This document shows, piece by piece, positions 8,405-37,685 of a stretch of DNA of 64,000 nt. Position numbers and translations under genes: made by a program. Below the pieces are notes generated by a model, which was given only the letters and a program-made list of their open reading frames with translations, searched no databases and was not told where the DNA came from. Numbering within the stretch: the first letter of the stretch is position 1; every line of letters begins with the position of its first letter. This DNA comes from a virus: IMG/VR virus record IMGVR_UViG_3300046517_001864, positions 3,880 through 67,879 of that record; one strand, 5' to 3'.

Positions 8405-8598
8405 TGCGTAAGGATCAAGTGGAAGCGGTACTCGCGGATCTCGCGGAGCAAGAGCGTGTGCTCGTGGATCGGATTGATTCGACCACAAGTTCGCTCGTGC
8501 GGGTGCGGGGGAATATCGCTGGACTTCGGGAGAAGTACGCAAAGGTACTCGCCGTGGATGCTCCGTCCGTCGTGGTCGAAGCCCAAGCGGTTTCGTAA
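8401..8598 (+). CDS. small coiled-coil protein (65 aa)
   Basis: ATGA overlap with upstream gene. Confidence 0.4.
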   Translation: MMRKDQVEAVLADLAEQERVLVDRIDSTTSSLVRVRGNIAGLREKYAKVLAVDAPSVVVEAQAVS

Positions 8599-8604
8599 TC
8601 GGTC

Positions 8605-8796
8605 ATGACCGAAGCACAACAAACCGAACTAGTCGCGATGGTCGAAGGTGTTGTGGCGGGTCGGCTGGTGGATCATCGCAAGTGGCAGATGGCTCGGCGA
8701 GCTACGCCAATCTCTCGTGAGGTGATCAAACGGATCTCTCACAACGTCAGCAGGTACCTCGCTGGGGAGTTGAAACAGGAGTTTTCGAAAGGATAA
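8605..8796 (+). CDS. hypothetical protein (63 aa)
   Basis: ORF in early block. Confidence 0.4.
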   Translation: MTEAQQTELVAMVEGVVAGRLVDHRKWQMARRATPISREVIKRISHNVSRYLAGELKQEFSKG

Positions 8797-8799
8797 CAC

Positions 8800-9381
8800 A
8801 TGGCAACCTGTCGTCCGGAAGTACTCGCGGAGTTTATGGATTCGTATCTCCCGAAGTTGGAGAAGATCCTCGACGTACCGGTGAAGTGGTTTTTATACCA
8901 AGCCCCCGGCGCTGACGCTCTCAGCCCACGGTTAGGAGAAGGTGGGACGTGGTACCTCGTTGAGAAAAACTCACGGCCTGTTCCGAACACGCCATCACCC
9001 TCGTACTTCGCGTCGTTCATGATCGAACAACTTCGGGGATGTTGCGGAGTATGCGTCAGCACCGGTGCTCACGTTCGGGCGGAGTACACCCGCCAGGGCA
9101 TCGGCACGATGTTAAACGAGATGCGGCTCGGAATGGCAAAACGTCTCGGGTACGGGGTGATGCTCTGCACAACTGTGATGGATAACATCGGGGAGGGAAA
9201 AATCCTCGCCACGAATGGATGGCGGGAGATGTACACGTTCGTTAACCCTCGAACCAGTCGGAAGCTGGGGGTTTTCCTTCGCACCCTCCACGACATTCCG
9301 ATGGATGGTCCAGTGTTTGCAAAAGGTGCGCCAGCCGCACGAGCGACGAAGAGTTCGTTGTTGAAAGCGGGGAAGCTGTGA
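8800..9381 (+). CDS. GNAT-fold-like protein, paralog A (GCCG motif)
   Basis: 'RGCCGVCV', 'QGIGTMLNEM', 'NGWREMYTFVNPRTS' are colinear with 'PGCCGINV', 'KGIGTLFMEL', 'LNFTQVCTVVNPNTS' of 12228..12821; the (Q/R)xGIG segment resembles the GNAT acetyl-CoA motif A. Confidence 0.45.
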   Translation: MATCRPEVLAEFMDSYLPKLEKILDVPVKWFLYQAPGADALSPRLGEGGTWYLVEKNSRPVPNTPSPSYFASFMIEQLRGCCGVCVSTGAHVRAEYTRQGIGTMLNEMRLGMAKRLGYGVMLCTTVMDNIGEGKILATNGWREMYTFVNPRTSRKLGVFLRTLHDIPMDGPVFAKGAPAARATKSSLLKAGKL

Positions 9382-9526
9382 TCCGAATCTGCTCATCCGG
9401 GCATGTTACCGGGTACAAACGCTGCCCACGCTGTGGGGCAACCTCACAACCCGAGCGGGTGCGAGCATCCGAGCTGAAGCTCAAACCCGGTCAGACCATC
9501 AAACACCTGAGGAGTATCGGGAAGAT

Positions 9527-9934
9527 ATGAAATCCATCCGATCATTCATTCTCGCGGGGCTTCTGTCGTTCGGGGCTCTCGCACAAACCGGACCGGGAAC
9601 GTTGTTCTTCTTTGGCACCCACCACTACGCGGATCAGGTGCTCGAACCGTACCCGATCGGTGGGCTATCGAATTGGTACATTGTTCGAGCTCCAACCGCC
9701 GCCGCGTACGAGACGTTTGAAAACCTCCTCGACGTCCACAGCATCACTGTGATCAAAAACGGTGTGGTGCTCACGGCGCAGGGAAATAATCCGGATTATG
9801 GATTTTTCGTTCTTTCCAGTTTCACAAAATCATCCCAAGTAGTGGTGATTCTCGCAGCGCCAGTGCTTCCCACGGATCGGCTCCGAGTAAGTTTCGACTA
9901 CATCCAACAGGCTGCGCCGTGTGTGGTGTGTTAA
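9527..9934 (+). CDS. secreted protein (135 aa) with N-terminal signal peptide
   Basis: MKSIRSFILAGLLSFGALAQTG signal-like N-terminus. Confidence 0.5.
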   Translation: MKSIRSFILAGLLSFGALAQTGPGTLFFFGTHHYADQVLEPYPIGGLSNWYIVRAPTAAAYETFENLLDVHSITVIKNGVVLTAQGNNPDYGFFVLSSFTKSSQVVVILAAPVLPTDRLRVSFDYIQQAAPCVVC

Positions 9935-10181
9935 GGAAGATATGATCGGTTTAAAACGAGCGTTACGTATTGCAAAGGAAAAAGAAGGATACGAACAATG
10001 TTTTCGAAAAGATCATGGGCTTGGGTCGCCTTGTACATATGACGGTAAAACAGCTCCAGCGGGGTTTATTATCTGCCCAATTGTTCAGTTCTACCCAAAA
10101 CCAACGTACATGTTCCACTCAGTGAAAGATTTTCTTAAAAGTTCTGATATAGCCTATCGTAAAAAAGGCTGGATCAAATGA
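9921..10181 (+). CDS. hypothetical protein (86 aa)
   Basis: ORF in early block, overlaps upstream stop. Confidence 0.35.
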   Translation: MWCVKEDMIGLKRALRIAKEKEGYEQCFRKDHGLGSPCTYDGKTAPAGFIICPIVQFYPKPTYMFHSVKDFLKSSDIAYRKKGWIK

Positions 10182-10219
10182 TGTTCGTGAAGTACAAATC
10201 AAACTAGGAGAAATAACCA

Positions 10220-10597
10220 ATGCCAGCTCGCCAATGTCCCGAATCGACAACGATCACCGTCGCGCAAGCGTACGGACGTTCGATGTTGCAACTATCCACT
10301 CAGCTCAAACGCAACCAGCAGTTCATCGACTTCGCCATTCCCTCCGGTGCTGTGAAGTTCCTCGCCAAAGACGGCACCATCAAAACCCACAGCCCGAGTT
10401 CCAACTACGTCTTCGGTGGCCCCCGATTGATCGTCGGCGAACGCACCGTGGGACGCGTGACTTTCACTCCCACCGGTCGTGTGGCCGTGCCGACCAACGG
10501 ACAGCCGTACCTCAACGATGATGGCGGGATCTCGTACGGCACTCGTGGCATGACGGATGAATATCCGATCATGACCATGACCACGTCAGCGGCGTAA
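10220..10597 (+). CDS. hypothetical protein (125 aa)
   Basis: SD AGGAGAAATAACCAATG. Confidence 0.5.
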   Translation: MPARQCPESTTITVAQAYGRSMLQLSTQLKRNQQFIDFAIPSGAVKFLAKDGTIKTHSPSSNYVFGGPRLIVGERTVGRVTFTPTGRVAVPTNGQPYLNDDGGISYGTRGMTDEYPIMTMTTSAA

Positions 10598-10875
10598 ACA
10601 TCGGTACTCACCGAAAGGCGGCTATGCGCCGTTAAACACTCTCGCCCCGAAAGGTCGTAACTGGCCTAACGGGGCTTGTGGTGTTTTATGCTAAGCAAGT
10701 TACAGGAGATCTCCCGACGGTTGGAACTCATGCGAGTACGAGCGGCACATCTCATTAGCGTAACCGATCAGGACACAGCAGCAAATGCTCGAATTCGTTT
10801 GGAAGTGATGGATGAGGTTTTGAAAGAGTTTTGGAAAATCGTTGAACGATAGACGTAGGAATATAAAGGAGACAT

Positions 10876-12231
10876 ATGCCGCAGATTGAAATCCTCCAGG
10901 TTCGACCTGGAAATGTCGTGAGCTTTCTCGCCGAACCGCATTTGGTGCTTCAGCGGTTTAGCTACATGAACATCCATACGTTACTTCTCTTGAACAAAAA
11001 AGGCGAGGTAACGGAGCTTCGGGATTCGCAACTCAGTAAAACCGTTCCGACGGTGATGGAAAAGCTCGAAGACGCCGCAGCCTCAGAATGGCGAGAGAGT
11101 ATCGTCGGGAGCAAAACCGTTTTTGAAAAAGGTCACATGACCACCGGCGGCGGGTCGTGGATGCACATCGGAACTGATCCGGAGATTTTCGCGATGGATC
11201 GAAACGACCATGTGATTCCAGCGTTTGCGTATCTCCCTTCGAAACCCACCCCGAATCCGAACGGGCCACCCATTCCTGCGATATTCTTCGACGGGTTCCA
11301 AGCCGAATGGACAACAAATCCTTCCTCATGTCTCGGGCATCAAACGGATTATGTTCGGCAGGGGATGCAAGGTGTGCTCAACGCCGCACGGAAAATCGAT
11401 CCACAAGCAAAACTCTCACATCTGTCGGTAACCGACATCACATTCGATCCGACGCTACCCCCGGAGCGTTACCAGCTTGGATGCTCACCCTCAATGAACG
11501 CGTACGACGAACCCTCCGTGTTGATGGGGACGCCGGAGCTCCTTCCGTTTCGTTCAGCAGGATGGCATATGCATTTTCGAGGAACTACACCGCCGGTGAA
11601 TGCGGGTGATCCAGTGGATGGTTTCCATAGTGTTGATTCGAAAGAACTTGCCGCGAAGATCATCCAACTCGAAGATGCGATTCTTGGCACGGCATTGGTG
11701 AGTTTCGGCCAACATCACGTCGACCCCCGACGGAGGTTGATGTATGGTCGTGCGGGTGAATACCGGTTGGGGAAGACGCTCGAATACCGAGTGCCAGAGG
11801 TACTGATGGGATGCCATCCCGCCACGTGGAATCTGTTTTGGGACTTAGGCCGTGCGGTGTATTGGCTTGGGATGAGAGGGTTCAACTTCATCTGGGATGC
11901 CGATCCAACCGAGGTTCGAGAGGCGATCAACAACTCGAACGTGGCGTTAGCGCAGAAGATCCTTACGAAGAATATCCAGGTCCTGAATAGTATCTTCAAG
12001 TACCTCTACCGTGTGGGGCCGCTCAAGCCGACACCGGACTGGGCTCCGGATAAGATGGCTGTGAAAGCGATCCTCGAAGGTGCGAACGCGGTGTTGAACG
12101 ATCCAACAGCGGTGAGCAGGAATTGGCGGTTGGAGTCTGGCCAAACCTGGCAGAATGAAAGCCAAGGGCATCTCACCGGAACAAACTGGCGGACGTCTGT
12201 ACCAATGCTCCAAAGAGGAGAGAAACTATGA
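10876..12231 (+). CDS. large protein of unknown function (451 aa), flanked by the two GNAT-like paralogs
   Basis: SD AAGGAGACATATG; stop overlaps next gene (ATGA); no family recognised by eye. Confidence 0.6.
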   Translation: MPQIEILQVRPGNVVSFLAEPHLVLQRFSYMNIHTLLLLNKKGEVTELRDSQLSKTVPTVMEKLEDAAASEWRESIVGSKTVFEKGHMTTGGGSWMHIGTDPEIFAMDRNDHVIPAFAYLPSKPTPNPNGPPIPAIFFDGFQAEWTTNPSSCLGHQTDYVRQGMQGVLNAARKIDPQAKLSHLSVTDITFDPTLPPERYQLGCSPSMNAYDEPSVLMGTPELLPFRSAGWHMHFRGTTPPVNAGDPVDGFHSVDSKELAAKIIQLEDAILGTALVSFGQHHVDPRRRLMYGRAGEYRLGKTLEYRVPEVLMGCHPATWNLFWDLGRAVYWLGMRGFNFIWDADPTEVREAINNSNVALAQKILTKNIQVLNSIFKYLYRVGPLKPTPDWAPDKMAVKAILEGANAVLNDPTAVSRNWRLESGQTWQNESQGHLTGTNWRTSVPMLQRGEKL

Positions 12232-12821
12232 GCATACCCGCTCGGTTAGCAAACCTAATCAAACTCGATCCGTGGAAAACTCGGATTGAGAAACTCGAAC
12301 TCAGTGATATTCGTTTCGAAGGTGCATCGATTGCATCAAACTCGGATATTACTATTAAATTCCGGTATCAAAAGTGTGATCCGGTCATCACGGGTGTGAT
12401 TCCCGTCGGATGGTTTCCGGGATGCTGCGGGATTAACGTAATCCACCACATCAATTTTCCGTCGTGGGTGAAGTACGAAATCGACCCGGTGAAACGAGTT
12501 CCAATCGGACGAAAAGGAATCGGGACGTTGTTCATGGAGCTGGTGCTCGAAGCTTACAAGCAAGCTGGGCGAGAACGCACCGGGCCGGGGTTGTTACTCG
12601 CGGCCACAACGGGGTTCCAACGATCTGGGATAAAGATTCTCGAAAAGCTGAACTTCACCCAGGTTTGTACGGTCGTCAACCCTAACACCTCTCAAGAGGT
12701 AACGTTGTGGTATTACAAAACCTCGAAGTTCAAAACAGAGGCGGATATCAAACTCATGGAGAAAAGGAAAAAAGCTAAAGCAAAGCCGAAACCAAAGGCT
12801 AAACCGAAACCGAAACATTAA
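12228..12821 (+). CDS. GNAT-fold-like protein, paralog B, with C-terminal Lys/Ala/Pro repeat tail (KAKAKPKPKAKPKPKH)
   Basis: See paralog A; translationally coupled to the 451-aa gene. Confidence 0.5.
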   Translation: MSIPARLANLIKLDPWKTRIEKLELSDIRFEGASIASNSDITIKFRYQKCDPVITGVIPVGWFPGCCGINVIHHINFPSWVKYEIDPVKRVPIGRKGIGTLFMELVLEAYKQAGRERTGPGLLLAATTGFQRSGIKILEKLNFTQVCTVVNPNTSQEVTLWYYKTSKFKTEADIKLMEKRKKAKAKPKPKAKPKPKH

Positions 12822-13392
12822 CTTCTCATCGCCGCCCGTCGGGGTTACAACATAACCTGCTGCGGCATACTAACGGGATTAAAGCCATACCCAATGGCGA
12901 TGTGAAAATCCTCTACATGAATAACACGTCTAGATAACAGGATCTACCACGGATGACTCTTGCCTCTCCGATGTTTGTACGTCTCGAAGGAGAGTGCTCG
13001 ACACACGATGGTCTAGTGGGATCGAGTATTCGTAACCTCCATTGCAGGGCCGCTGAAGCCCTCGAAGGGTGTTACCGTAGCTCACTTAAGCCCACACGGC
13101 TCCTCAAGCCGTCATAAAGACCCTGGAGGCAAAAACGGAAAGAGCTCGGGAACCTATCCATCCGCGTGGGGTGGAGCAGAAACTCGCATCGGGCCGTGTA
13201 GAGGTGCCAAGGATCGTATTTGAAGTACAAGTTTACCAAGTAGCTGGCGCTGAGCTACCTAAGAATCTCCATATCTCATCGTGGCCGACGTTAGGTTCGT
13301 CAAAAGGCCGTGGAGGGGAACCGCTCCCACGGCATCGATCATGTTATGGAGAGATCTTAGATCGGGTTGGAGACGTAATTCCCGTGAGGTAA

Positions 13393-13439
13393 TTCATTTT
13401 GTGGGGAGTGTAGACTGGGTCAGGCGGGTTCGATTCCCG
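13393..13439 (+). ncRNA. tRNA-like minihelix (acceptor stem plus T-arm only) / truncated tRNA remnant
   Basis: GGGGAGT...CGGGTTCGATTCCCG...ACTCCCC: 7-bp acceptor-like stem with canonical T-arm (GGTTCGATTCC) but only 47 nt and no anticodon arm; sits in an 0.85-kb ORF-poor gap. Confidence 0.3.
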
Positions 13440-13764
13440 TGAACTCCCCTTCAAGTTTTCCACCCTTCGTTTGGTTAACACCTATGACGAATGGGGTACG
13501 CCGATTACCGGCGAGCTAAAGCACCGTTGGAGGCTAGGAAGCATGTTTATGTTGTAGAAGTTAGGACAGGTGCTAATCGGCGTCGCTTCGGCTTCGCCAT
13601 TAATATTAGCGTTATAACCTGCTGACAGAGTTTCTCACGGCATAACATACGGAAGGTCCGAGCGGAGGGTGGGAATAATAACCTATGAAAAACGAACTAA
13701 TCACAATCGGATGGATCGCGACGGGGATATTTATGCTTTGGGTAGCGTTTGCTCGGTGAGTGTT

Positions 13765-13944
13765 ATGGAATACCATTCATTATGTGATCACTGCGGGGAT
13801 CTGTTGATCGAAGATCATCGTCCCGCGCCGGGAGAATCGGTACATTGTTCTAGCTGTGGGATTACGTTCCCGCATGGACTTCGGGATTCCCATTGGCGGG
13901 AATGGTCTGATCCCTCCAAACCCGATTGGGCAGGTTGCGCGTGA
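13765..13944 (+). CDS. small zinc-ribbon protein (59 aa; CDHC...CSSC)
   Basis: Internal ATG of ORF-track 13669..13944; two CxxC pairs. Confidence 0.3.
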   Translation: MEYHSLCDHCGDLLIEDHRPAPGESVHCSSCGITFPHGLRDSHWREWSDPSKPDWAGCA

Positions 13945-14092
13945 ATGGTCTATGGGAGTTTTTCTTCTGCCCCGCTCACGGTGTGTTGCGATTCGTGGAC
14001 GGCGCTCATCTAACCTACGCTTGGGTATGGGTGCGTCATTCGAGCTACTACGTCCAGGCGTGGTTGTTATCACGTAAGGAGATTGTAAAATA

Positions 14093-14854
14093 ATGTACGC
14101 GTCTTACATTCCCGACAAAGGTACGATAGTCATGTACCCGGATTACAACTCCGCGATGGCGGATCGATTCCCGTATGAAGAAGTTGATTCCGACGCGTAT
14201 AACAAACTCATCCCAACGTTAGAATCAAACAGTCGGGTTTGTTTGACGTGTAGACGCGCTCGACTCGAACACTTCCGGGATCGATGTCGAACAATCGCGG
14301 ATTATGTAACAGGAGGACTTCCAACCGGCCATCCGATTGTTCGTCCACTTGTGGATATCATCATCTGTTCGTGTGGGGTCTCCGTAAATCGGGTGAAGAT
14401 CAACGGGAAAACTCGGTGCTACAAAGCCACCCGAGAGGAAATTCGTCGTTCGATCACAGGGAGATTAGCCACTACCCTGGCGAACGTACCTCAACCGAAT
14501 TGGACACTTGAGGCCCCAGGTCGATTCGCGCCAGACGTGTTACCTCGGCCAAGAGCTGGACGGACTCCGAGAACCGATCGGGATAATCTTGTCTTCAACG
14601 CAAGAATCGAGACAGATAACCTCACCCCACTTCAACAACGGGTTCGTCAGCTTACAGAAGCTATCATCGATCGTGATCGTCCAATGTTTCAGTGGGATCC
14701 GATGGTACGTCCGACAGCACCTCAACCGGAACCAGCCGAACCAAGAGTAACCGATCCGCCTCGTGTAGCGGATAACCAATTCACGGCTCTCCGACTAGAT
14801 GAGACAACCTTCGAACGGGTGGATGATGACATTCAACGAGAGGAGGAAGATTAA
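14093..14854 (+). CDS. hypothetical protein (253 aa), first gene of amidoligase cluster
   Basis: SD AAGGAGATTGTAAAATAATG; acidic C-terminus. Confidence 0.55.
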   Translation: MYASYIPDKGTIVMYPDYNSAMADRFPYEEVDSDAYNKLIPTLESNSRVCLTCRRARLEHFRDRCRTIADYVTGGLPTGHPIVRPLVDIIICSCGVSVNRVKINGKTRCYKATREEIRRSITGRLATTLANVPQPNWTLEAPGRFAPDVLPRPRAGRTPRTDRDNLVFNARIETDNLTPLQQRVRQLTEAIIDRDRPMFQWDPMVRPTAPQPEPAEPRVTDPPRVADNQFTALRLDETTFERVDDDIQREEED

Positions 14855-14857
14855 CCC

Positions 14858-15559
14858 ATGATTCACGGACGTTTTCACGGCGTAACAATCGTCAAACTCT
14901 CGCGAGCTGAGGGGGTGGAGATGCTAGCTTACCTCGGTTGGACTCGGATGATGTATGAAAAACTCATCCGACCGAAAGCTACGACCGAAAGTCCAACGGT
15001 CAAGCGACTACTTTCCTCTGTGCATGGGATTGAAACATGTATTCGAATGTACATACCTGGCGGTGGGTGGACCCCCGTAGATGCGCTGTACCATGAACGG
15101 TTAAACCAAAACAACCTCCTCCAACCAGGAGCAGCGGATGAAGGGTTATCGATTCTGTTAGGTTTTTCCGAAGAATTCATTCGGTCCATTAGCTCATACC
15201 CGAATCTATTCTCCGCTCCAACCGTCACCCGATTGTGTAAATCCGTTGATCGAAGGTTTCCGATCCGGGAATACCACCCCAAATCCGCTACGCTCGAACA
15301 ACGAACTCATTCCATCGAGTTAGTTGTACAACTATTCCAAATCCTCTCTGGGAATAACTCCGGAGAACTTTCCGGCGCGAATGATCGACAGTTGTTGTAC
15401 AACCAATCAACCGGGTTGGTGGAGATGTTGCGGATCTCCCACGATTTGAAGAACATCATCGCAAAGATCGATCATTGGACCGAAGTACTTGGTGCAGAAC
15501 GTCATGTATCGAAAGAGTTTGTTACAAAGACATTAAACACAAGGAGTATTTGTGGTTAA
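14858..15559 (+). CDS. hypothetical protein (233 aa)
   Basis: Tightly packed between 14093 gene and amidoligase (overlaps amidoligase start by 8 nt). Confidence 0.55.
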   Translation: MIHGRFHGVTIVKLSRAEGVEMLAYLGWTRMMYEKLIRPKATTESPTVKRLLSSVHGIETCIRMYIPGGGWTPVDALYHERLNQNNLLQPGAADEGLSILLGFSEEFIRSISSYPNLFSAPTVTRLCKSVDRRFPIREYHPKSATLEQRTHSIELVVQLFQILSGNNSGELSGANDRQLLYNQSTGLVEMLRISHDLKNIIAKIDHWTEVLGAERHVSKEFVTKTLNTRSICG

Positions 15560-16757
15560 CAAGGAAAAATTCTGCGTCAACTGCCTTCGTCGGGCTCGGG
15601 ATACGGAAAAAGCTTTAAAAACCGTCCACTCCCATCCGCTACGGCTCCCGAAGGAACACTGCGCGATCTGCCATCGATGCTCTTCTTGCCGGTGTATCTG
15701 TGTCATCTGCACGAAGTGTAAAGCACGTGTTGCAATGGCCCCAACGAAGTACTGCTCGCACTGTCGGATGTGTAAGAAGTGCGACTCATGCAGGAAAATG
15801 CCGCACTACCTTTCCACCGATCGGTGGGTGGGGACGCGGACATCTTCGCTCATCAACCCGTTGAATCGTACGCTTGGGTTGGAACTTGAGATTGCAAACT
15901 GGGGTACGTTGGAGAACTACCTCATGAACTACGCTCACTACGACCGAGCGCATGATTGGTCGGTGAAGCCATCTGAATCAGAGATGGTCCTCCAACCGTT
16001 AAAAGGGGATTACTTCCTCAAAGCGATGATGGAGTTGGCCGTAACCCTTGCAAAATCAAAAGCTTCGGTGAATGAAACCTGTGCGTTACACGTACACGTC
16101 GGAGGAACGGAGTTGTCATACTGGGAACTTCGACGTCTCCTGCGGGTATACGCGAAGCTTGAGCAAGAGATATACGATTATCTCATTTTACCACATCGGA
16201 GGGACACTCCGACGGTAGTTCACTACTGTCAGATGATGACTAAGCCTCACATCCATTGTGATCGATGTGATCGGTACGATCAACAGTATCCCCGAACCCG
16301 TCGGGTGCTGGAGGATCTCCACACTACGGTAGCTCGAATGGACCGGGCGCAGACCACCACAGATCTCAAAGCATGTTTTTTGAAGATGCTGTATAACATC
16401 CCCCGACCTTCGGAGAAGTATTCGAAAGAGCATCTTCCATCTCGGCTCCAAACCCTCCAAACCCACAAAGGCGGGAGATACGAATGGTGCCGGTACGTTG
16501 GGCTCAACCTCCACGCGTGGCAGTATCGTGGTACGGTCGAATGGCGAATGAAAGAAGCCACTACCCAGCTTGACGAGCTGATCTGCTGGCCGTTGTGGTG
16601 TGGGTGGTTTGTGGAAACCATCACCAAAATGACCGAGAAAGACTCCACCCGTTGGTGGACGTTGATCGAATTCACCGAGCGGTACATGCCAAAGTATCTC
16701 ACTGCATGGGTGAGTAATAAAGTTTCGCAAAGAAAGGTAGGACCGACGTTGTCATGA
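15552..16757 (+). CDS. amidoligase of the GCS2/YbdK (glutamine synthetase-like) fold with N-terminal multi-Cys zinc-ribbon region
   Basis: 'TLGLELEIAN' (G-x-E-x-E start motif) and 'ALHVHVG' (HVHVG motif) typical of gamma-glutamyl-cysteine-ligase-2-type amidoligases; N-terminal CxxC x6 cluster. Confidence 0.55.
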   Translation: MVNKEKFCVNCLRRARDTEKALKTVHSHPLRLPKEHCAICHRCSSCRCICVICTKCKARVAMAPTKYCSHCRMCKKCDSCRKMPHYLSTDRWVGTRTSSLINPLNRTLGLELEIANWGTLENYLMNYAHYDRAHDWSVKPSESEMVLQPLKGDYFLKAMMELAVTLAKSKASVNETCALHVHVGGTELSYWELRRLLRVYAKLEQEIYDYLILPHRRDTPTVVHYCQMMTKPHIHCDRCDRYDQQYPRTRRVLEDLHTTVARMDRAQTTTDLKACFLKMLYNIPRPSEKYSKEHLPSRLQTLQTHKGGRYEWCRYVGLNLHAWQYRGTVEWRMKEATTQLDELICWPLWCGWFVETITKMTEKDSTRWWTLIEFTERYMPKYLTAWVSNKVSQRKVGPTLS

Positions 16758-16948
16758 GTAAACTTTGGACTCCAAAGGACTACTGGCGTAAGGAAATCAT
16801 CGACGTCGCACTGAAAGAGATCGATCGAAACCAGGCGATTGTCTACTATCATCGAATGGACTGTCCACATCCGGAGTTTGTTCCGAAAGGAAACTTCTCG
16901 TCAGTCTGTGCGGTCTGTGGAAGAAATAAGGAGTTTATTAAATCATGA
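16754..16948 (+). CDS. small Cys/His protein (64 aa)
   Basis: ATGA overlaps on both sides; CPHPEF...CAVCGRNK. Confidence 0.4.
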   Translation: MSKLWTPKDYWRKEIIDVALKEIDRNQAIVYYHRMDCPHPEFVPKGNFSSVCAVCGRNKEFIKS

Positions 16949-17157
16949 AAACCCAATTCTGTTCCTTTTGTGGGAAAGACACGCTCCACAACCCATTGAA
17001 GAAAACCCCAAAAGGTGAACAGTTCTACCGTTGTGTGGTATGCGGGAACCCCCGCCGGTACAATGGAAAGAACTTTGCAATAGCTCTTGCGCCGGGTTCG
17101 AGAGCTGTGAACCTTCCCTACCCGATCCCACCGAAAGGTGCGTTGGGGGCATCATGA
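16945..17157 (+). CDS. zinc-ribbon protein (70 aa; CSFCGK...CVVCGNP)
   Basis: Two CxxC pairs; ATGA coupling. Confidence 0.45.
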   Translation: MKTQFCSFCGKDTLHNPLKKTPKGEQFYRCVVCGNPRRYNGKNFAIALAPGSRAVNLPYPIPPKGALGAS

Positions 17158-17450: not shown

Positions 17451-18482
17451 ATGTGTGGAATATTCGGCTTTAGCCGTGTAACGGATGTGACCAAACAGAT
17501 GGCCATTCCGTTGATGTGGGAGATGGAGGATCGAGGACGGGACTCTTGGGGCTGCTCCAACGGAATCGAATGGATCAAACAGATCGGTCCGATCACCAAA
17601 ACGTGGCGGAAATACGAATCCGAATGGCACCAGTGGGAACGAGCAATCTTTCACACCCGTGCTGCTTCGCAGGGGAAGGTCTCCATCGAAAACCAACACC
17701 CGTTCCGTATTGACCATACGGAAGAGGATCAATCCGTCCGCACCCTCGTCGGAATCCACAACGGTGTCGTCTCCAATCATGACCAACTTAACGCCAAGTA
17801 CAAACGGGATTTTGATTGTGATACCCCGCATATCTACATGGCCCTCGCGGGGTTCTCTCCTACTCAGGAGATTCACGGGTATGGTAACCTGGCGTGGTAT
17901 GATTACTCGACCACAAACCCGACTCCAATCCTGCACTTCCTCCACTTTAACGCAGGGAACCTGAACGTCGCGAAGCTCGAATCTGGTGAGATGGTGTTCT
18001 GTTCCACGAAAGATCCCATCGATCGTGCTGCGGATTTCGCAGGAACCAAAATCGATCGGTACTTTCACCTGGAAGGGGATAAGATTTACTGGGTGGAACT
18101 GAACTACCAGGATGTCCCAGGATCGGACATGCTCATCGCTGGGCCGAAGCAATCCTTCGGCGGGAGGTCGATTCAAGGAACTGGTTGCGCTACTCCTTGG
18201 GATGGGCACCGTCCAGTTGGGTTACCCTTGTACGAGCACATCGCCGGAGCGAATCCCCGCAGGATGGGTCCTTCCCAAGTCCGGAACACGAATATATCCG
18301 AACTTGGCTCAGAGGATCGACAGAACAACATCTGCCTTAACAATCAATGCAAGAACAAAGTGAAACAATCTCGGCGGAAACAGCTCCTCTGTGAGACCTG
18401 CCTCGTAGCGGTAAAACAAAACCTCGCTTACATGACCACAATTCATGATCGGGTTCGTGGCCGAATGGGAGGTGCTGAATGA
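17451..18482 (+). CDS. class-II (Ntn) glutamine amidotransferase domain protein with C-terminal Cys cluster
   Basis: N-terminus MCGIFGF (catalytic Cys2 as in PurF/AsnB/GlmS); C-terminal CLNNQC...CETC. Confidence 0.65.
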   Translation: MCGIFGFSRVTDVTKQMAIPLMWEMEDRGRDSWGCSNGIEWIKQIGPITKTWRKYESEWHQWERAIFHTRAASQGKVSIENQHPFRIDHTEEDQSVRTLVGIHNGVVSNHDQLNAKYKRDFDCDTPHIYMALAGFSPTQEIHGYGNLAWYDYSTTNPTPILHFLHFNAGNLNVAKLESGEMVFCSTKDPIDRAADFAGTKIDRYFHLEGDKIYWVELNYQDVPGSDMLIAGPKQSFGGRSIQGTGCATPWDGHRPVGLPLYEHIAGANPRRMGPSQVRNTNISELGSEDRQNNICLNNQCKNKVKQSRRKQLLCETCLVAVKQNLAYMTTIHDRVRGRMGGAE

Positions 18483-19471: not shown

Positions 19472-20320
19472 TTGAACATTGGTTACATAGGAGAATATAT
19501 GGGAATACACGTCATCGGGCCGCAGGACTGGGAAACAGTCATTGCTTTAAATGACATGCTTCGGCATGTCCCGGAGGAAGGGACGTTCAAGCTGGGCGGA
19601 CGTCATTTCGAAGCGCAGGGGCAGTTCAAACGGTTTGACAAAGCCGGGGTCCCGACCGTCGAGTGGACCACGAATCTCACTACAGCGAAAGGATGGGTCC
19701 GAAACGGAGCAGCGGTGCTTGGACGAGACCGGTACCATTCTCGGGGGGAGGATATTGTTCTAGTATCCCACACTGCTGATATCACAGACGCTTGGGAAAG
19801 TAAGTCCGTCTGGACCAAGTTTGTCCCCTCCCAAGCCGAATGGCGATTCCATATCGTTAACGGGCAGTCCATCTCCCGGGATCTGAAGGTCTTCAACCGA
19901 CCCGGGCAGGGGCGAGGGTCCCTCGCGAGCATTAGAGCCCGCGCATGGGATTGGTCGGCCCGACATGATGTTGAGCCCCCAGCCGAGGCTCGCCGAGCTG
20001 CTGTAGCGGCTGTGGACGCGTTGGAGGGGTATACCCACGGTGCGGTCGACCTGCTTATCGACATGGAGTTCCGTCCAGTCGTGCTTGAAGTCAACCGCTG
20101 TCCGGGGATGGATGCCTACACCCGTGAGCGGTGGTGTAACGCGATTCGAAAGTTTGTACGATCTCACGGGCGGGGTAACGCGTCCGCTGAAACAGCAGCG
20201 GCCCGTCCACCAGTTCCAGCTTGGGTTCATCGACCCTCGACGGTCATGGCTCGGACCGAAACCGGGCGAATTTCGTCCCGGTCGAGAGAGGAATTCTACG
20301 AAGGCGTTGAGGTTGTATAA
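19472..20320 (+). CDS. ATP-grasp fold protein (candidate amide ligase)
   Basis: 'GAVDLLIDMEFRPVVLEVNRCPGMD' matches the ATP-grasp 'D...ExN..PG' C-terminal motif; alternative start at 19499 (SD AGGAGAA). Confidence 0.45.
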   Translation: MNIGYIGEYMGIHVIGPQDWETVIALNDMLRHVPEEGTFKLGGRHFEAQGQFKRFDKAGVPTVEWTTNLTTAKGWVRNGAAVLGRDRYHSRGEDIVLVSHTADITDAWESKSVWTKFVPSQAEWRFHIVNGQSISRDLKVFNRPGQGRGSLASIRARAWDWSARHDVEPPAEARRAAVAAVDALEGYTHGAVDLLIDMEFRPVVLEVNRCPGMDAYTRERWCNAIRKFVRSHGRGNASAETAAARPPVPAWVHRPSTVMARTETGRISSRSREEFYEGVEVV

Positions 20321-25803: not shown

Positions 25804-26166
25804 ATGAGGAATACTCTAACACAGGTTGAAGATCGGATATGCGAAGCGAAAGCCTCGACCCATAGTTCCGATAGAGCATCTCTTCTCACACGTCGTAGGT
25901 GGTTGCGGACACTGGTAATGTTGTCCTTAGGTGTATTCGGGATTCGTAATGCATCCTCAGGTGCTTCCACCCCAACGTGCGAGGATACGATTAACAAGTT
26001 TCAATGTTTGTTCAACGCGTGGGTGGAGCAGGTGAAGGAAAACAATCCTAACATCCTCGATGCGAAGCATCCCACAGCTATCCAAGACGAAATCGCCACG
26101 TGGCAAGTGGTACGTCACGAGTGGCGGGGGTTTGAGAAGCAGATTAACAAGATGTATGGAATTTAA
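25804..26166 (+). CDS. hypothetical protein (120 aa)
   Basis: SD GGAGAAATAATG; stop overlaps polymerase start (TAATG). Confidence 0.45.
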   Translation: MRNTLTQVEDRICEAKASTHSSDRASLLTRRRWLRTLVMLSLGVFGIRNASSGASTPTCEDTINKFQCLFNAWVEQVKENNPNILDAKHPTAIQDEIATWQVVRHEWRGFEKQINKMYGI

Positions 26167-28838
26167 TGTCAGAATTCAACAAAGCATTCATCGAACGTAA
26201 ACTCGCACCGAAGCCAGAGTTCTGCTCCCGGTGCCCCATCAACGAATTTACCGAAGGTTACGTCCCACTCGAACGAGGATCGGGAACGGAGCTTTGGGTA
26301 GGCGAGGCGGCAGGGGATGAGGAGGCAAGTCGTGGAAAACCTTTCATTGGCGGTGCTGGTAGTTGGCTTAACAGTATGCTTCAGTCTGCTAGGATTTCTC
26401 GTAGCAGCATTAGTCTTATTAACACTATCGGCTGTCATCCACCTGACAATATCTACCCTGGTTCAGATAAGTGGAATTTTACTGATCGTGCCGTTGCTCG
26501 GCAGGCGATTGATTACTGTCGTCAACAACACCTTGAACCAGCGTTAGTCCAGCTCAAACCAACCCGGATCGTGGCTCTTGGCAACGAGGCGATGAAAGCT
26601 GTTACGCCTCGGCAGGGTGTATTGCAATGGCGCGGATCGCCGTTACCACTGAAGGGAGCTCTGCACGCAGGCCCCCGGGTGGTACCAACCTTACACCCTG
26701 CTTTCCTAATGCGACAGGCGGGATTGTTCTCAGTCGCGGTGAAAGACTTACGTCGTGGGTTGGAATTACCTCCGGAGAATTATGATCTATACCCTAGCAT
26801 TGATACTGTTAAAGCGTTTACTGCGACTACGTTTTCTTTTGACTTCGAGTGGGACACGCTCAATAACATCACGATGTGTGGTCTCAGTGATCGATGGTAC
26901 CATGCGATTGTTGTGCCGTTTGTTCAACCTTTTATCACCGAGCTTAAGAGGATATTCGAAGCAGCAGAATGCCTCATTGGTCACAATATCGTCGATGCCG
27001 ATACGAGCTACTTCGATTCGTTGGGATGGAAGGTAACGGCGAGGCTTCATGATACGATGCTCGCGCAGCATCTGATCCAGCCCGACATGCGGCATGGACT
27101 TGGGTTTGTCGCGTCAGTGTTTTCGTCAAAGGTGTTTTGGAAAGGTAGTGGGGAGGAAACAGAAGATGATGCTGGAAATATTCTTCCAACCGGAGCTCAA
27201 TGGCGGACGTGGGATAGCCCCGACGCAATACCTCGGGAGTTTGGAGGTTACGGAGGCTGTCGTTCGAGCGATGAAGCTTGGAGATTATATAACGCTAGAG
27301 ACACCGATGGGACACTCCAATGCGAAGCTCGTATCTTTCGGACCCTCCGGGATTTCGGGCAGGAGTTCGTCTATACGAACGTCTCGGTCCCAGCGGCGTA
27401 CATCTGCCGAGACATCAACCGAACAGGTCTCAGGATTAACCCCAACAAAGTCACTGAAATTAGGGATACACTCTCGCGAGAAATCTCCGCGACGGAAGCC
27501 CTCCTCCCGGAAGGGTTAGCAGCGTATGAAAAACCAATCACCAAACAAATTGAGGCTCCTGCTGGAACGTATGCGCCGAAAGTCTTACGGTGTAAGGGAA
27601 CTCGAAAAGCTGGAACAGTTCACGATCTGGTTGAGTGGACAGTATCCACTCCTGGAGTATGCGGATGTCCTACGTGTGGTAAGGAATTCTCTCCTAAACT
27701 TAAACAAGTTAAACGAATCAAAGTTCCAGGAACTAAACGGATTGTGCCGTGGAACAGCACGGCACAAGTAATCACGTATGCTAAAGCCAAAGGTTGTAAA
27801 GAAGTCCCGCACGCGAAGACCGGTAATTCTTCTGGAGACAAACGTGCCCGTAAAATTTGGGGCCGTGAACATACAGAATTCACCCTTGTGGATACTCTTA
27901 AGAGGCTTGTCACACAGCGAAATAGCTTCGCTAAAGAAGCATTGCAAGGTCTTGACTGGGTCAGGTTTCGCCTCGCAGTTACGGGTACTTCCGAAGGACG
28001 TCTCTCATGTTCTGGAGTCTATCCTGCGAACCTGAACCTCCAGAATCAACCCAAAGCGATCAAAAAGATCTTCATCCCTGATAAAGAAGGTTATGGAATT
28101 CTCTCCCATGATATCGTCCAAGGAGAAAACATGCTCACCGCATGGCTGGCGGAGGATTGGCCACGATGGGAGAGACTCAATACTCCGGGGTTTGATGAGC
28201 ATAGTTACATGGCTAGTCGGTTTTTCAATACCCCGGTTGGTCCAAATGACCCACTCAGAAAACCTGGTAAGGTTATCAATCACGGTCGGAATTACGGACT
28301 CGGTGAGCGGAAAACACAAGACTATCTGTCTTTGGAAGGATTCCAATTCTCGATTGCGGATATCCGAGAGATGATAAATATATGGAAAAAGGAAAACGCT
28401 CGTACCGCAGCATGGCAACAGGAGACCGTACACCTCGCACAGAAGCAAAGCTACCTCGACAATCCGTTCGGAAGACGGAGGTGGTTCCAAGGGCGAGACT
28501 TCGCTACCAAGGCATTGGCATTCTTACCGGCTTCGACACTAGCCGATATGGTTCTTCGAATGATGTTAGCTCACTACCCAGAGAGATTTGGATCAGAGAT
28601 TTTAAATTTAGGACTTGGTGTTTGTACATCGCTAATGGAGAACTGGCGTTTGGCTCTACAAGTCCACGACGATCTCGTATTCATCGGTCCAGATGAATCC
28701 CACCGCGAGATGGCCCAACGCACCCGAGCGGTGATGTCGCAGGAATGGAAAGAGCTTGGAGGTTTCCACTTCCGGGTGGAGACGAAGTATAGCACCACGA
28801 CATGGGGTGATGGGAAGGTTCTGGAGATGGTGGCATGA
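26166..28838 (+). CDS. family A DNA polymerase with N-terminal family-4 uracil-DNA-glycosylase-like domain and 3'-5' exonuclease domain
   Basis: N-term 'GEAAGDEEASRGKPFIGGAGSWLNSML' = UDG family-4 motif A, 'HPAFL' = motif B; 'FDFEWDT' exo I; 'RKPGKVINHGRNYGLG' = PolA motif B (RRxAKxxNFGxxYG); 'QVHDDLVF' = motif C. Confidence 0.9.
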   Translation: MSEFNKAFIERKLAPKPEFCSRCPINEFTEGYVPLERGSGTELWVGEAAGDEEASRGKPFIGGAGSWLNSMLQSARISRSSISLINTIGCHPPDNIYPGSDKWNFTDRAVARQAIDYCRQQHLEPALVQLKPTRIVALGNEAMKAVTPRQGVLQWRGSPLPLKGALHAGPRVVPTLHPAFLMRQAGLFSVAVKDLRRGLELPPENYDLYPSIDTVKAFTATTFSFDFEWDTLNNITMCGLSDRWYHAIVVPFVQPFITELKRIFEAAECLIGHNIVDADTSYFDSLGWKVTARLHDTMLAQHLIQPDMRHGLGFVASVFSSKVFWKGSGEETEDDAGNILPTGAQWRTWDSPDAIPREFGGYGGCRSSDEAWRLYNARDTDGTLQCEARIFRTLRDFGQEFVYTNVSVPAAYICRDINRTGLRINPNKVTEIRDTLSREISATEALLPEGLAAYEKPITKQIEAPAGTYAPKVLRCKGTRKAGTVHDLVEWTVSTPGVCGCPTCGKEFSPKLKQVKRIKVPGTKRIVPWNSTAQVITYAKAKGCKEVPHAKTGNSSGDKRARKIWGREHTEFTLVDTLKRLVTQRNSFAKEALQGLDWVRFRLAVTGTSEGRLSCSGVYPANLNLQNQPKAIKKIFIPDKEGYGILSHDIVQGENMLTAWLAEDWPRWERLNTPGFDEHSYMASRFFNTPVGPNDPLRKPGKVINHGRNYGLGERKTQDYLSLEGFQFSIADIREMINIWKKENARTAAWQQETVHLAQKQSYLDNPFGRRRWFQGRDFATKALAFLPASTLADMVLRMMLAHYPERFGSEILNLGLGVCTSLMENWRLALQVHDDLVFIGPDESHREMAQRTRAVMSQEWKELGGFHFRVETKYSTTTWGDGKVLEMVA

Positions 28839-34584: not shown

Positions 34585-35511
34585 TTAATACTGATTAACC
34601 ATCGGCGGAGTGCCGGAAGAATTCCCACCCACAGAAGGATTCGTAGGGTTGTCACGATAACTCTCCACAGTGCCAGTCTTTTCCCCTCGGCCCGCTCCGC
34701 TTCGCAGCATATCCGGACGAGGTGTGTTAAACTCCGTATCCCCATGACGTTGCAAGTAAACTCCTGGACGTAGCCCTCCTCGGGCTTGTAGGTTTACTCC
34801 CTCCTCGTATTTCCACTTCCCGTCATCCCCGACCGTAAGTCGGTCGGTTGGGGCGGTACCTTTCGAATGAGTTAACGTATCCCCAGAACGATCCACGGAG
34901 TAGTCCTTCGGGAACCCTGCCTTCGCCCAAGCTTGGATGGTTCGCATATCCCCGGAGTGAGCGGCGACGATTGAAACCAGCGACGGGTGCCGAGCGGATT
35001 CTTTCATAATCTGCTCCATTGCCGGGAGCATCCGCTGTTCGTAATCCCGTTGGCTCTCCCCTCGTTGGCCGGTGAGCGGGGATTCCCCGGGAGGTTCGTT
35101 GGTGGGGGTTTGGGTTTTAAGCCGTTTTACGAGCTCCTGTACGTCGGTCGACCGTTCCCCTTCCAGACTCCCCATCCGTTGCGGGGCGAGCCCAGGAACC
35201 TCGGTAATCGTAGGTTTAAACGGCGCGAGGTGTTGGGCGAGGATCTGGGAGGTCTCCTTCGTACGAGCCCAGGGGGATGAATAGATTTTAACCTGACGAG
35301 GTCGGCCAGACTCCGCAAGGCGTTGACCGAAGTGAGACCCCACCTGATGGATCTGGTTACGACCTTCATCCAGGAGGTTGAAGTTACTTGCCCCACGCTC
35401 ACGAACGAACGGATCGGGTCCCATATCCTGCGGAGGCGTAGCCGGACGAAGCTGTGGGGGTTTGCCAAGTTGTCCGAGAAGATCAAATGCGCGGCTCATG
35501 GTTTTAACCAA
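34585..35511 (-). CDS. histidine-phosphatase-superfamily-like protein with motifs in noncanonical order
   Basis: 'VYLQRHGDTEFNT' (RHG catalytic motif) near C-terminus; 'KIYSSPWARTKETSQIL' and 'IVAAHSGDMRTI' earlier in sequence. Confidence 0.4.
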   Translation of the reverse strand: MVKTMSRAFDLLGQLGKPPQLRPATPPQDMGPDPFVRERGASNFNLLDEGRNQIHQVGSHFGQRLAESGRPRQVKIYSSPWARTKETSQILAQHLAPFKPTITEVPGLAPQRMGSLEGERSTDVQELVKRLKTQTPTNEPPGESPLTGQRGESQRDYEQRMLPAMEQIMKESARHPSLVSIVAAHSGDMRTIQAWAKAGFPKDYSVDRSGDTLTHSKGTAPTDRLTVGDDGKWKYEEGVNLQARGGLRPGVYLQRHGDTEFNTPRPDMLRSGAGRGEKTGTVESYRDNPTNPSVGGNSSGTPPMVNQY

Positions 35512-37685
35512 GGAAACATTTTGTACTCTGGCTGCTTCATCCGTTGCTCTAACGGTCGGTTTGATCCGATTGGTTCGGCTGGGAACTGTCCAGTTTCGGC
35601 ACGTCCGAGGATCCCACCGATATCATTAGCACCCTCTCCGGCTTCTTGACCTTCGGGGAATAACTGCTGTTGGTTCAACCTCATCGATCCCGGAGGTGGG
35701 GTTGGTTCGAGGTTGATCTTCATCGGAGGATACCCGGAGAGAGTCGGAGCCACCCGAGGGATACTCTTCGGGGGGAGTTTGTACTTCGCCGCAGCTTCAT
35801 CCGTGTAGTTGTTATACGCGTCGAGAGCTTTGTTGATACGAGCTACGGAGTCGTAAGGACTTTTATCCGGGCGGGTGTACTTCTGTACCAAAGCTTTCCC
35901 TGCAGCTTTCGCGGTTGCCTCTGGAGAGGTAAGATCGAAAATGGAGAAGTTGTATCCACCCTTCGCCTGTTGCGCTGGAGTCACCCGAAGATCTCGGTAA
36001 AGGTTTTCGTGAGCTTCTTTGAAATCTAGGATTGACTTTAGCCGATCGTTGAGTTCCTGGTATTGTTCTCCGCCATGCTCGGGATCCACGCCTTTTGCAA
36101 TGATATCCCTCGCAGCTTCGGTTTCAGCACGAAGAGAAGATGATCGAACATGCGAGGCCATATCATTATACTGACCAAAGTCCGTCTTCCCGTAGTACTT
36201 ATCCAACATCGCGTTGTTCGTCGCACGAAGAGCTCGGAGTTGTTTCAGGGATAGTTGTTTACCGTTGTAACTCTCCGCATCTTTCACCAACGCATCGTAA
36301 GTTGGTCTATCCACCTCCGCGAGATGTTCGGGTATCGCCGCGAGTTTTGCCTTGTAAATCGGAGTAGTATCTCCTTTCCACCCTACCCCAATCGCTCGGT
36401 TCTCCATTGCCTCGGCTTGGAATTTGTTATCCGCTTCCGCGATTCGAATAGCTTCGGGAAGATGTGCGAAGTCTAGTCGTTCGGAGGCCGGTAGCGCAGC
36501 ACGAAGTACCGGCAATCCCTTCTGAACCGACGAATCAAACCCAGCGTCTTTCACCCCGAACCCTTCCGCGAGTCCTTTCGTGATTGGATTCGGCCAATCG
36601 GGACCGAGGAGTTTCTGTTGTTTAATCCAATCCTTTGAAAGGTACTCTCCCGGTTTCTCCAGCCCGCCGGAGAATTTCAACCCGAGCAGATCCCGCACCG
36701 TGTTGAAGGTAAGATCCCCTGCACCTCCAGCGACATCCCCCGCAGCAATCTTCTCCACCCCACCGACGTATCCACCGAGCGGCGGAATCATCGCCGCAGC
36801 AGTGTGAGCGGTAGCATCCGCGAGAGCTTTCGCAGCTTCCCCATGTTCCCCTCGGGCAGTGTGGTCGATGAGACTCTGCACCGCTTCGTACGCTTTCGGC
36901 AGGTGCTCCGCAGCTCCGGAGACTATCGCCCCACCTGGGGTGTGACCCACGAGCATCTGTCCTAACGCCAGCCCAGCGTGCCCGAGTCGGCCTTCTTTCA
37001 GAGCATCCCAAACTTCCTGAATATCCTCCCTCGGTGGTTCGGTCCAACCCTGGACGGTATCCGGTAACCCCAGCGCACGAGGAGCCCCGCCAAGAAACGC
37101 CGCTGCCTGCTGCGCTCGGGAGACTTGGGTCTGTTGTTCCTGGTGGTAAGCGTCGAACAGATCCGGACCGGTCGAACCGACCCCACCTGCTGATGCCGGA
37201 GGAGGAGTCTCCGCACCCGGCCCACCTGTTGGAGCGGAGGGATTGTTCAATCGGGTAGGAACCGAACTCGACTCACGCTTTGCTTGGAACGCCGCAAGCC
37301 GCTCGGGATCGATCTGTGCTAGCGGAGCAGAGCGGTTAACTCCAAGCTGTGACGCAGCGTCGGAGATGTACTTCTCCGTGTCGTTCTCTCCCGGCGGGGC
37401 GTAAGTGGAGATGTACTGTTCAAGCGTATGCCCCTGTCGGGTATGCTGGCCGATTAGCTGATGGAGGGCTTGGTAACCCGCTCCTGGATCAGAGAACTTC
37501 GCAAACCCACCTTCCCCTTGCGTAGCCCCCGGCTGTCCAGCAAACCGAAGATTTCCTGGGTTGTTGTTCCGATACGCGAGCTGTGGGGTGAACGAATTCT
37601 GCCCCGGAGCGAACTGAGGAATGGTAATCCCCGCGTCCGGTGCTTTCGACTGCTGTTCGTGGTAGAGATCGAATAGATCCGCCAT
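35496..37685 (-). CDS. large virion-associated protein (729 aa), internal/ejection-protein candidate
   Basis: Position at distal end of structural block; internal duplication (MADLFDLYHEQQ... / GPDLFDAYHQEQQ...); 'NNNPGNLRFAG' motif; Pro/Gly-rich linkers. Confidence 0.55.
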   Translation of the reverse strand: MADLFDLYHEQQSKAPDAGITIPQFAPGQNSFTPQLAYRNNNPGNLRFAGQPGATQGEGGFAKFSDPGAGYQALHQLIGQHTRQGHTLEQYISTYAPPGENDTEKYISDAASQLGVNRSAPLAQIDPERLAAFQAKRESSSVPTRLNNPSAPTGGPGAETPPPASAGGVGSTGPDLFDAYHQEQQTQVSRAQQAAAFLGGAPRALGLPDTVQGWTEPPREDIQEVWDALKEGRLGHAGLALGQMLVGHTPGGAIVSGAAEHLPKAYEAVQSLIDHTARGEHGEAAKALADATAHTAAAMIPPLGGYVGGVEKIAAGDVAGGAGDLTFNTVRDLLGLKFSGGLEKPGEYLSKDWIKQQKLLGPDWPNPITKGLAEGFGVKDAGFDSSVQKGLPVLRAALPASERLDFAHLPEAIRIAEADNKFQAEAMENRAIGVGWKGDTTPIYKAKLAAIPEHLAEVDRPTYDALVKDAESYNGKQLSLKQLRALRATNNAMLDKYYGKTDFGQYNDMASHVRSSSLRAETEAARDIIAKGVDPEHGGEQYQELNDRLKSILDFKEAHENLYRDLRVTPAQQAKGGYNFSIFDLTSPEATAKAAGKALVQKYTRPDKSPYDSVARINKALDAYNNYTDEAAAKYKLPPKSIPRVAPTLSGYPPMKINLEPTPPPGSMRLNQQQLFPEGQEAGEGANDIGGILGRAETGQFPAEPIGSNRPLEQRMKQPEYKMFPWLKP

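Follow-up and report, generated by a model that had tools for sequence, protein, structure and literature searches.

Amidoligase gene clusters of the phiEco32 type are widespread in phages. This cluster is said to have been described computationally by Iyer and colleagues in 2009, and it reportedly combines ligases of the families PF14395 and PF12224 with a class-II (Ntn) glutamine amidotransferase (GAT-II) and a RimK-like ATP-grasp protein. A related logic is found in the synthesis of mycothiol, in which MshC carries out an ATP-dependent amide ligation and MshD then acetylates the new free amine in a reaction that depends on coenzyme A (CoA). The succession of linked peptide ligases and an acyl cap added by a GNAT enzyme is a published paradigm (PMC4431377), and the functions that have been suggested for the phage amidoligases on computational grounds include cell-wall modification, superinfection exclusion and secondary metabolites (PMC10580990). 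Here we describe the amidoligase region of a 64,000-nucleotide stretch of viral DNA (positions 3,880 to 67,879 of the IMG/VR record IMGVR_UViG_3300046517_001864; hereafter, the window), where two genes for related GNAT-like proteins, named A (8800..9381) and B (12228..12821), accompany a gene that encodes a ligase of 451 aa (10876..12231). We consider it probable that A and B are accessory enzymes of the amidoligase module, in which they would add an N-acyl cap.

Results

A and B are anciently diverged members of one family

The three open reading frames (ORFs) that had been singled out in a first-pass annotation of the window, i.e. those of A, B and the 451-aa protein, are present at these positions, all of them on the plus strand. 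Protein A (193 aa) carries the elements RGCCGVCVST, RQGIGT, GYGVMLCT, NGW and NPRT, and in B (197 aa) we found PGCCGINV, RKGIGT and NPNT together with two insertions of 12 and 5 aa. The three collinear motifs by which the annotation had related both proteins can be recognized as the pairs RGCCGVCV/PGCCGINV, QGIGTM/KGIGTL and NGWREMYTFVNPRTS/LNFTQVCTVVNPNTS (the last two ending in VNPRTS and VNPNTS, respectively); one detail of the pattern had to be amended, given that the residue preceding the F in B is N and not G. The similarity is far above chance in a pairwise alignment, since BLASTP aligned A and B over 97 aa with 29% identity and an E-value of 4e-7, and hhalign, used to compare the profile of the main family with one made from B and its orthologue, returned a probability of 97.5% and an E-value of 8.6e-12 over 91 columns. 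With a hidden Markov model (HMM) built from 146 family members, from which everything close to the window was excluded, A scored 147.7 bits and B 52.0 bits, and the best of 1000 shuffled versions of B scored 4.4 bits. The proposed paralogy of A and B is supported by these results; in contrast, the idea that the pair arose by duplication within this genome is not. Orthologues are encoded in two contigs from other uncultured phages, a 7-kb Logan contig (L001) and a 48-kb IMG/VR contig (L032). A is 48% identical to the product of L001 1664-2194, and B is 37% identical to that of L001 4608-5300 (E 1e-33) and 33% identical to that of L032 11189-11728 (E 4e-20), whereas the identity between A and B is just 23-29%. 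Because each protein is nearer to the orthologues in other phages than A is to B, the split is ancient, and A and B are paralogues that were inherited as a pair.

A is a typical member of the family. B represents a divergent, ligase-coupled subtype that lacks the CTD motif, and in which the insertions bring the spacing between CCG and NPNT to 86 residues. The C-terminus of B, KAKAKPKPKAKPKPKH (encoded by 12771-12818), is basic and KP-rich, and it had been suggested that it could bind nucleic acids or membranes. This tail is lineage-specific: the L001 orthologue has a different basic tail and the L032 orthologue has none. Since the KP tail is not kept in the orthologues, no function can be read from it.

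A GNAT fold and an intact CoA-binding motif

The AlphaFold2 model of A (predicted local distance difference test score, pLDDT, 73; predicted template modelling score, pTM, 0.71) has a mixed alpha/beta GNAT fold. When the model was compared with the PDB using Foldseek, 358 matches were obtained at E<=1e-3, and the top 50 were GNAT acetyltransferases throughout. Every close structural neighbour of A is a CoA-dependent N-acetyltransferase, and RimI, RimJ, RimL and protein acetyltransferases are included among the neighbours. The four best matches of the family profile to PDB sequences were also GNATs, aligned on motif A. On the basis of its model A is predicted to adopt the GNAT fold; B is called a GNAT by homology, because its own model was poor. 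The GNAT-like fold anticipated for both proteins was recovered by structure prediction for A, and it extends to B through its relationship to A.

Motif A (Q/R-x-x-G-x-G/A), which follows strand beta4 and contacts the pyrophosphate of CoA, is intact in both proteins (RQGIGT in A and RKGIGT in B), and its G-x-G-T portion is invariant in family alignments of 6 and of 20 sequences. In addition, several relatives surpass the cutoff of the Pfam model Acetyltransf_1 (PF00583; 20.7 bits), i.e. the family members P0009 (22.2 bits), P0030 (23.0 bits) and P0120 (23.4 bits) and the module-linked relatives L042 (30.2 bits) and L045 (28.0 bits). A and B are predicted to be CoA-dependent and to transfer an acyl group to an amine.

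A large GNAT subfamily in uncultured viruses

Word-indexed searches using B alone, or a profile of B and its L001 orthologue, retrieved a single relative, and it was the combined A/B search with HMMER that exposed a large family. In an exhaustive search of 1.84 billion cluster representatives, the A+B profile matched 1570 proteins at E<=1e-3, of which 831 reached E<=1e-10, so that the family comprises at least 1570 clusters at 50% identity. Its members, mostly of 140-180 aa, share the signature PGCCG(V/I)(C/V)(V/I)S ... (R/K)xG(L/I)GT ... GYG..(L/M)CTD ... Q(R/Q)KIL.KNGW ... NPRT. Close homologues were found in metagenomes, four for A, one of which is named GNAT N-acetyltransferase by JGI, and one for B. 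A tblastn search of 50,697 GenBank phage records with A and a typical family member gave no match, and a scan for the PGCCG pattern in one genome per species from 185,579 bacterial and archaeal species gave 13 pattern matches and no relative. PHROGs has no family for the PGCCG proteins, which had just two marginal matches to other families in that database, and NCBIfam has none either. As judged from these searches, the PGCCG family is a virus-restricted GNAT subfamily, seen in the databases searched solely in uncultured viral sequence.

Within the core family, nothing is conserved more strongly than the pair of vicinal cysteines. Among 152 top members (the family matches listed plus P0002 and P0004), CCG is present in 147, and in 122 the spacing between CCG and N(P)RT is 68 residues. 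CCG is also invariant across the 23 GNATs of the loci found with the GNAT motif (see below), even where motif A is degenerate. From the alignment, CCG would lie at the start of beta4, and the general-base Glu of the PAT-type GNATs would align approximately five residues further on. In module-linked relatives this site reads PGCK, PGCR, PGN.. or PGCCA, although their RGxGxG motif is good and their GNAT scores are significant in Pfam; therefore, the wider clade can do without the cysteine pair, which may have a structural, redox, metal-binding or acyl-accepting role.

B follows a long-form phiEco32-type ligase

The 451-aa ORF had been described as a protein with no recognizable family. A profile search revealed that its residues 97-366, which correspond approximately to the catalytic core, match PHROG 3815 ('COOH.NH2 ligase', E 4.5e-17), and using tblastn the protein matched annotated COOH-NH2 (carboxylate-amine) ligases in 16 cultured phages with 24-29% identity, including Klebsiella phage Asterion, Cronobacter phage A24 and Salinivibrio phage CW02. 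The match to Pfam PF14395, the type 2 COOH-NH2 ligases, is weak (12.3 bits, for a cutoff of 25), and the window ligase is therefore considered a divergent member of this family. Across 11 phage ligases (that of the window and ten others, A24 and Asterion included) 20 columns are invariant, among them D101, E103, D139, E144, R226, H231, D267, R286, R297, E303 and R305, and by analogy these could be assigned catalytic roles as active-site residues of the type found in glutamine synthetase (GS) and GCS2. Given the 20 invariant positions, we infer that the window ligase is a putatively active enzyme, and it is predicted to catalyze ATP-dependent carboxylate-amine ligation. As compared with the enzymes of cultured phages, of about 265-270 aa, it has approximately 95 additional residues at the N-terminus and 85 at the C-terminus, which are lineage-specific, and for this reason we refer to it as the long form. 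The start codon of B overlaps the stop codon of the ligase (ATGA), and the sequence GGAG is located 9 nt upstream of the start of B; from this arrangement B is predicted to be translationally coupled to the ligase.

Recurrence of the GNAT-ligase linkage

L001 and L032 are syntenic with the window, in the order of a conserved 125-aa protein (p125), the ligase and a B-type GNAT. The ligases of L001 and L032 are 52% and 40% identical, respectively, to that of the window, and in both contigs the start of the B-type GNAT coincides with the ligase stop or comes directly behind it. In the window, p125 is encoded upstream of the ligase at 10220..10597 on the plus strand, and it is the best-conserved gene of the block, with 65% identity to L001 2397-2777; its identity to L032 9347-9760 is 39%. 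No match to p125 was found in Pfam or PHROGs, and it may be a subunit of the ligase, a substrate or a regulator. A C-terminal 'tag' was considered for p125 given its SAA end in the window and L001, and it was discarded because the L032 orthologue ends otherwise and no further homologues appear in the loci examined. In L032 a homologue of the membrane dipeptidase Peptidase_M19 (8511-9350, E 5e-53) is located directly upstream of the p125-ligase-GNAT-B unit, and it is missing from the window.

A motif scan of IMG/VR for the GNAT gave 17 loci, 15 of them distinct. Neighbouring genes were assigned by local iterative HMMs, clustering and Pfam, and the families counted were ATP-grasp, COOH-NH2 ligase, GAT-II, Amidoligase_2, gamma-glutamyl cyclotransferase (GGACT, PF06094) and Peptidase_C26. 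Genes of these families are present on the same strand within 8 kb in 10 of the 15 loci. Module genes surround the GNAT in L021 and L061, and the module is expanded in two very large viral contigs. One of these, of 452 kb (IMGVR_UViG_3300035661_000001, represented by L017 and L039), encodes a tandem of two long-form ligases and a GGACT protein, and then three PGCCG GNATs in tandem. In the other, of 433 kb (L036), a GGACT gene accompanies three ligase genes in tandem. From the opposite direction, we analyzed the best 79 of 324 IMG/VR contigs that encode relatives of the ligase. The GNAT is present in 19 of these 79 loci, i.e. in 16 of the 34 closest, mostly long-form, versus 3 of the 45 others (Fisher p 4e-5), so that its association is preferential to the long-form ligase clade. 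A frequent gene order is long-form ligase, GNAT, second PF14395 ligase, GAT-II and ATP-grasp.

Additional genes of the module

Downstream of the window ligase, on the same strand, three other enzymes of the phiEco32-type cluster are encoded. The first is an Amidoligase_2 protein, a GS-like ligase (15552..16757; PF12224, E 2e-16, with matches to PHROG amidoligase families), 51% identical to its L032 orthologue. It is followed by a protein with a GAT-II domain (17451..18482; PF13522, E 2.6e-6), which matches the N-terminal domain of GlmS/PurF and also has PHROG matches, and by a RimK-like ATP-grasp peptide ligase (19472..20320; PHROG 2599, E 1.4e-22, and a weak match to a D-Ala-D-Ala ligase of NCBIfam). 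The set of Amidoligase_2, glutamine amidotransferase and ATP-grasp is also present in A24, Asterion and most of the 79 IMG/VR loci. The first-pass annotation had proposed a ligation or modification module around A and B, which agrees with these genes, and had taken it for a second one; instead, the region is continuous with the downstream genes, and we assign the enzymes encoded in 10876-20320, together with A and B, to one phiEco32-type amidoligase module.

Other features were observed in this region. The first approximately 100 residues of the Amidoligase_2 protein (15552-15850) are extremely rich in Cys and contain many CxxC pairs, namely CVNC, CAIC, CSSCRC, CVIC, CTKC, CSHC, CKKC and CDSC, which look like a multi-zinc-finger extension outside the Pfam model. 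Between A and the ligase there is a 135-aa ORF (9527-9934) with a signal-peptide-like start (MKSIRSFILAGLLSFGALAQ), which has a partial homologue at the start of the L001 contig and no family match. A small zinc-ribbon-like protein (YHSLCDxCGDLL...CSSC...), encoded at 13669-13944 after B, is 63% identical to that of L001 2870-3079, which is located before the ligase. Downstream of B, a stretch of approximately 275 nt that lacks a common ORF (12918..13192) is 68.7% identical to L001 5409-5662; its conservation is similar to that of the coding regions, and its conserved blocks are not in the same frame. A few hairpins with compensatory changes were found in it, the minimum free energy z-scores were not significant, and it had no Rfam or tRNA matches. 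Of two pattern scans of IMG/VR for this stretch, one gave seven matches without extended similarity, taken as chance, and the other none. A regulatory or RNA element is conceivable here, which may or may not belong to the module. A DNA-hypermodification role for the cluster was discarded, as no thymidylate-synthase-like, DNA-kinase, glycosyltransferase or Mom-like genes were found near it.

The genome

The window is a genome sequence of an uncultured tailed phage without a close cultured relative; megablast of its 8-17 kb region against the 50,697 GenBank phage records gave no match. The structural genes are on the minus strand, from approximately 34.5 kb to 64 kb, and encode a portal/adaptor-like protein (60384..63008), the major head protein (56904..57854) and a transglycosylase-bearing protein (35496..37685). 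The plus strand carries genes for nucleotide metabolism and replication, including a family-A DNA polymerase (26166..28838) fused at its N-terminus to a domain of the uracil-DNA-glycosylase superfamily (PF03167, E 1e-17), whose nearest relatives in GenBank phages are just ~24-31% identical, as well as genes for NUDIX, RNase-H-like exonuclease, HD and AAA_24 proteins. An SPFH/Band-7 domain protein (33464-33988; PF01145, E 4e-18) closes the plus-strand block. At the left end of the window (737-1935, minus strand) there are cupin/mannose-6-phosphate-isomerase-like and PfkB-family sugar-kinase-like ORFs, which are unusual auxiliary metabolic genes in a phage.

Discussion

The reading that we favour, with a probability of roughly 0.6, is that A and B are accessory enzymes of the phiEco32-type amidoligase module, and that they would carry out a CoA-dependent N-acyl capping in an amide or peptide pathway. 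The ATP-dependent ligases of the module would activate the carboxylate as an acyl-phosphate and thus form amide or peptide bonds. The linkages are probably gamma-glutamyl-type amides or short peptides, as the analogy with GCS2, glutamine synthetase and PuuA suggests, and this type of chemistry is also indicated by the sister modules, which include a gamma-glutamyl cyclotransferase, a C26 gamma-glutamyl hydrolase and, in L032, the M19 dipeptidase. The GNATs would N-acylate the free amine of the product or of the acceptor using an acyl-CoA, most simply acetyl-CoA, in a capping or protecting step comparable to that of MshD after MshC in mycothiol synthesis; in our own view, a gamma-glutamyl moiety acetylated at its alpha-amine would, in addition, be protected from the attack of a cyclotransferase. 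B probably acts directly on the product of the ligase to which it is coupled, and A would have another amine as its substrate or use another donor; the presence of two paralogues implies that either the amines or the donors are two. Candidate targets are a small metabolite, the cell wall and a protein.

Several observations weigh against this proposal. The model of B was unreliable (pLDDT 48) and had to be left out of the fold search, and the Acetyltransf_1 threshold was not reached by A (13.7 bits), nor did B match this model. A few of the distant family members have a degenerate motif A, e.g. L022, L024 and the second copy in L008, and therefore the use of CoA may not be universal in the family. 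With regard to the linkage, no ligase gene was found in the flanks at hand of 5 of the 15 GNAT-seeded loci; L008 has two tandem GNATs with a C26 gene alone nearby, and in the window itself local HMMs did not detect GGACT or C26 genes. The cultured phages A24 and Asterion have the module and lack the PGCCG GNAT, so the GNAT is not essential to the module and has to be viewed as an accessory of one clade. Finally, the literature searched contained genome-annotation mentions of the phage module and no experimental study of it, its product or its target.

Some phages are known to acetylate host proteins with a GNAT of their own (PMC7824862), and A and B could be stand-alone enzymes of host takeover, similar to Rac of phiKMV, which acts on RNA polymerase, or to the Rim-type enzymes that act on ribosomal proteins, placed in the early/middle region without a pathway in common with the neighbouring amidoligases. 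We regard this possibility as unlikely, though by no means negligible. It would account for the loci that carry a GNAT and no detectable ligase and for the cultured phages that run the module without a GNAT, and the basic tail of B could in that case direct it to nucleic-acid-bound proteins. However, the adjacency of B and the ligase, which in the window reaches the overlap of the stop codon, has been kept in three phages despite protein identities of 33-52%, the GNAT is embedded among module genes in L021 and L061, and it is specifically with the long-form clade of ligases that the GNAT is associated (p 4e-5). The presence of RimI, RimJ and RimL among the structural neighbours of A is in line with a protein target, yet matches to such neighbours are generic and give no pointer to the substrate.

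Two other readings depart further from capping by CoA, and to both of them we give little credence. GNAT-fold amidoligases do exist and, according to Iyer et al. (2009, as cited by others), have been classed with ATP-grasp and GS-like ligases, so that in such a ligase-rich context A and B could be peptide-bond enzymes of the Fem/MurM or L/F-transferase kind, which would use aminoacyl-tRNA to add amino acids beside the ATP-dependent ligases. A Fem-like or aminoacyl-transferase activity had also been contemplated in the first-pass annotation. This is quite improbable, because A and B are single domains of ~190 aa instead of the tandem GNAT architecture of the Fem proteins, they have no match to Pfam FemAB or Leu_Phe_trans at E<=1, and their R/K-x-G-x-G-T motif for CoA pyrophosphate is conserved; moreover, the top structural neighbours of A listed are of the CoA type and do not include the Fem/MurM or L/F-transferase families. 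The vicinal cysteines could alternatively be the functional centre, either by forming a thioester from the acyl-phosphate of the ligase that is passed on independently of CoA, or by binding a metal or cluster in some non-canonical action. The persistence of CCG (147 of 152 members, 68 residues away from NPRT, and invariant where motif A is degenerate), its predicted position near the equivalent of the general-base Glu, and the predicted coupling of B to the ligase are compatible with such a role; nonetheless, the relatives with PGCK, PGCR, PGN.. or PGCCA that maintain RGxGxG and significant GNAT scores argue against it, and we found no precedent, so we consider it very unlikely. In its boldest form, which we rate as an equally long shot, the ligase and GNAT-B would constitute a minimal, virus-only conjugation device, E1/E2-like and CoA-independent, in which a cysteine thioester made from the ligase acyl-phosphate would be used to attach an acyl or aminoacyl group to a macromolecule of the host or the phage. 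Less radical, though also novel, would be the synthesis by the module of a small phage-made metabolite, namely a gamma-glutamyl thiol or peptide in N-acetylated form.

The three-gene unit formed by p125, the ligase and GNAT-B, along with the proposed N-acylation of a ligase product, offers a concrete handle on the function of the module. The PGCCG GNATs, whose Pfam GNAT scores are borderline, recur as partners of one ligase clade, and PGCCG ... NPRT can be used as a named signature to annotate metagenomic phage genomes. Neither the fold nor the type of module is new; the novelty, as far as checked, lies in a large GNAT subfamily, confined to viruses, whose members repeatedly accompany the long-form phiEco32-type ligases and in some cases are predicted to be translationally coupled to them.

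The comparison with known systems delimits this novelty. With respect to the small single-domain GNATs of bacteria (PA1377, 2vi7; the phosphinothricin/ArsN type; RimI/RimJ), the A/B family is 7-21% identical to any solved GNAT and has its own signature, with PGCCG, CTD and NPRT at fixed spacing, and A and B are below threshold in Pfam. Mom of phage Mu and other phage GNAT-like modifiers are likewise modification proteins of the GNAT superfamily encoded by phages (PMC7824862); however, no sequence similarity between Mom and A or B was detected, and Mom-type proteins are linked to DNA-modification contexts whereas A and B are linked to amidoligases. No DNA-hypermodification genes were found adjoining A or B. 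MshC and MshD follow the same ligase-then-GNAT-cap logic that we propose for the window module, with no sequence relationship beyond the GNAT superfamily, and MshC is similar to class-I tRNA synthetases whereas the window ligase is GS-like. In A24 and Asterion, genes for proteins of ~190 aa also follow the ligase; these were considered as homologues of B and BLAST showed that they are unrelated. The closest system is the phiEco32-like cluster, with which the window shares the same four enzyme families, encoded on one strand in the early/middle region. It differs from this cluster in that its ligase has 451 aa instead of about 265-270, with extra N- and C-terminal regions, and in that it adds two dedicated GNAT genes, one of which appears to be translationally coupled to the ligase.

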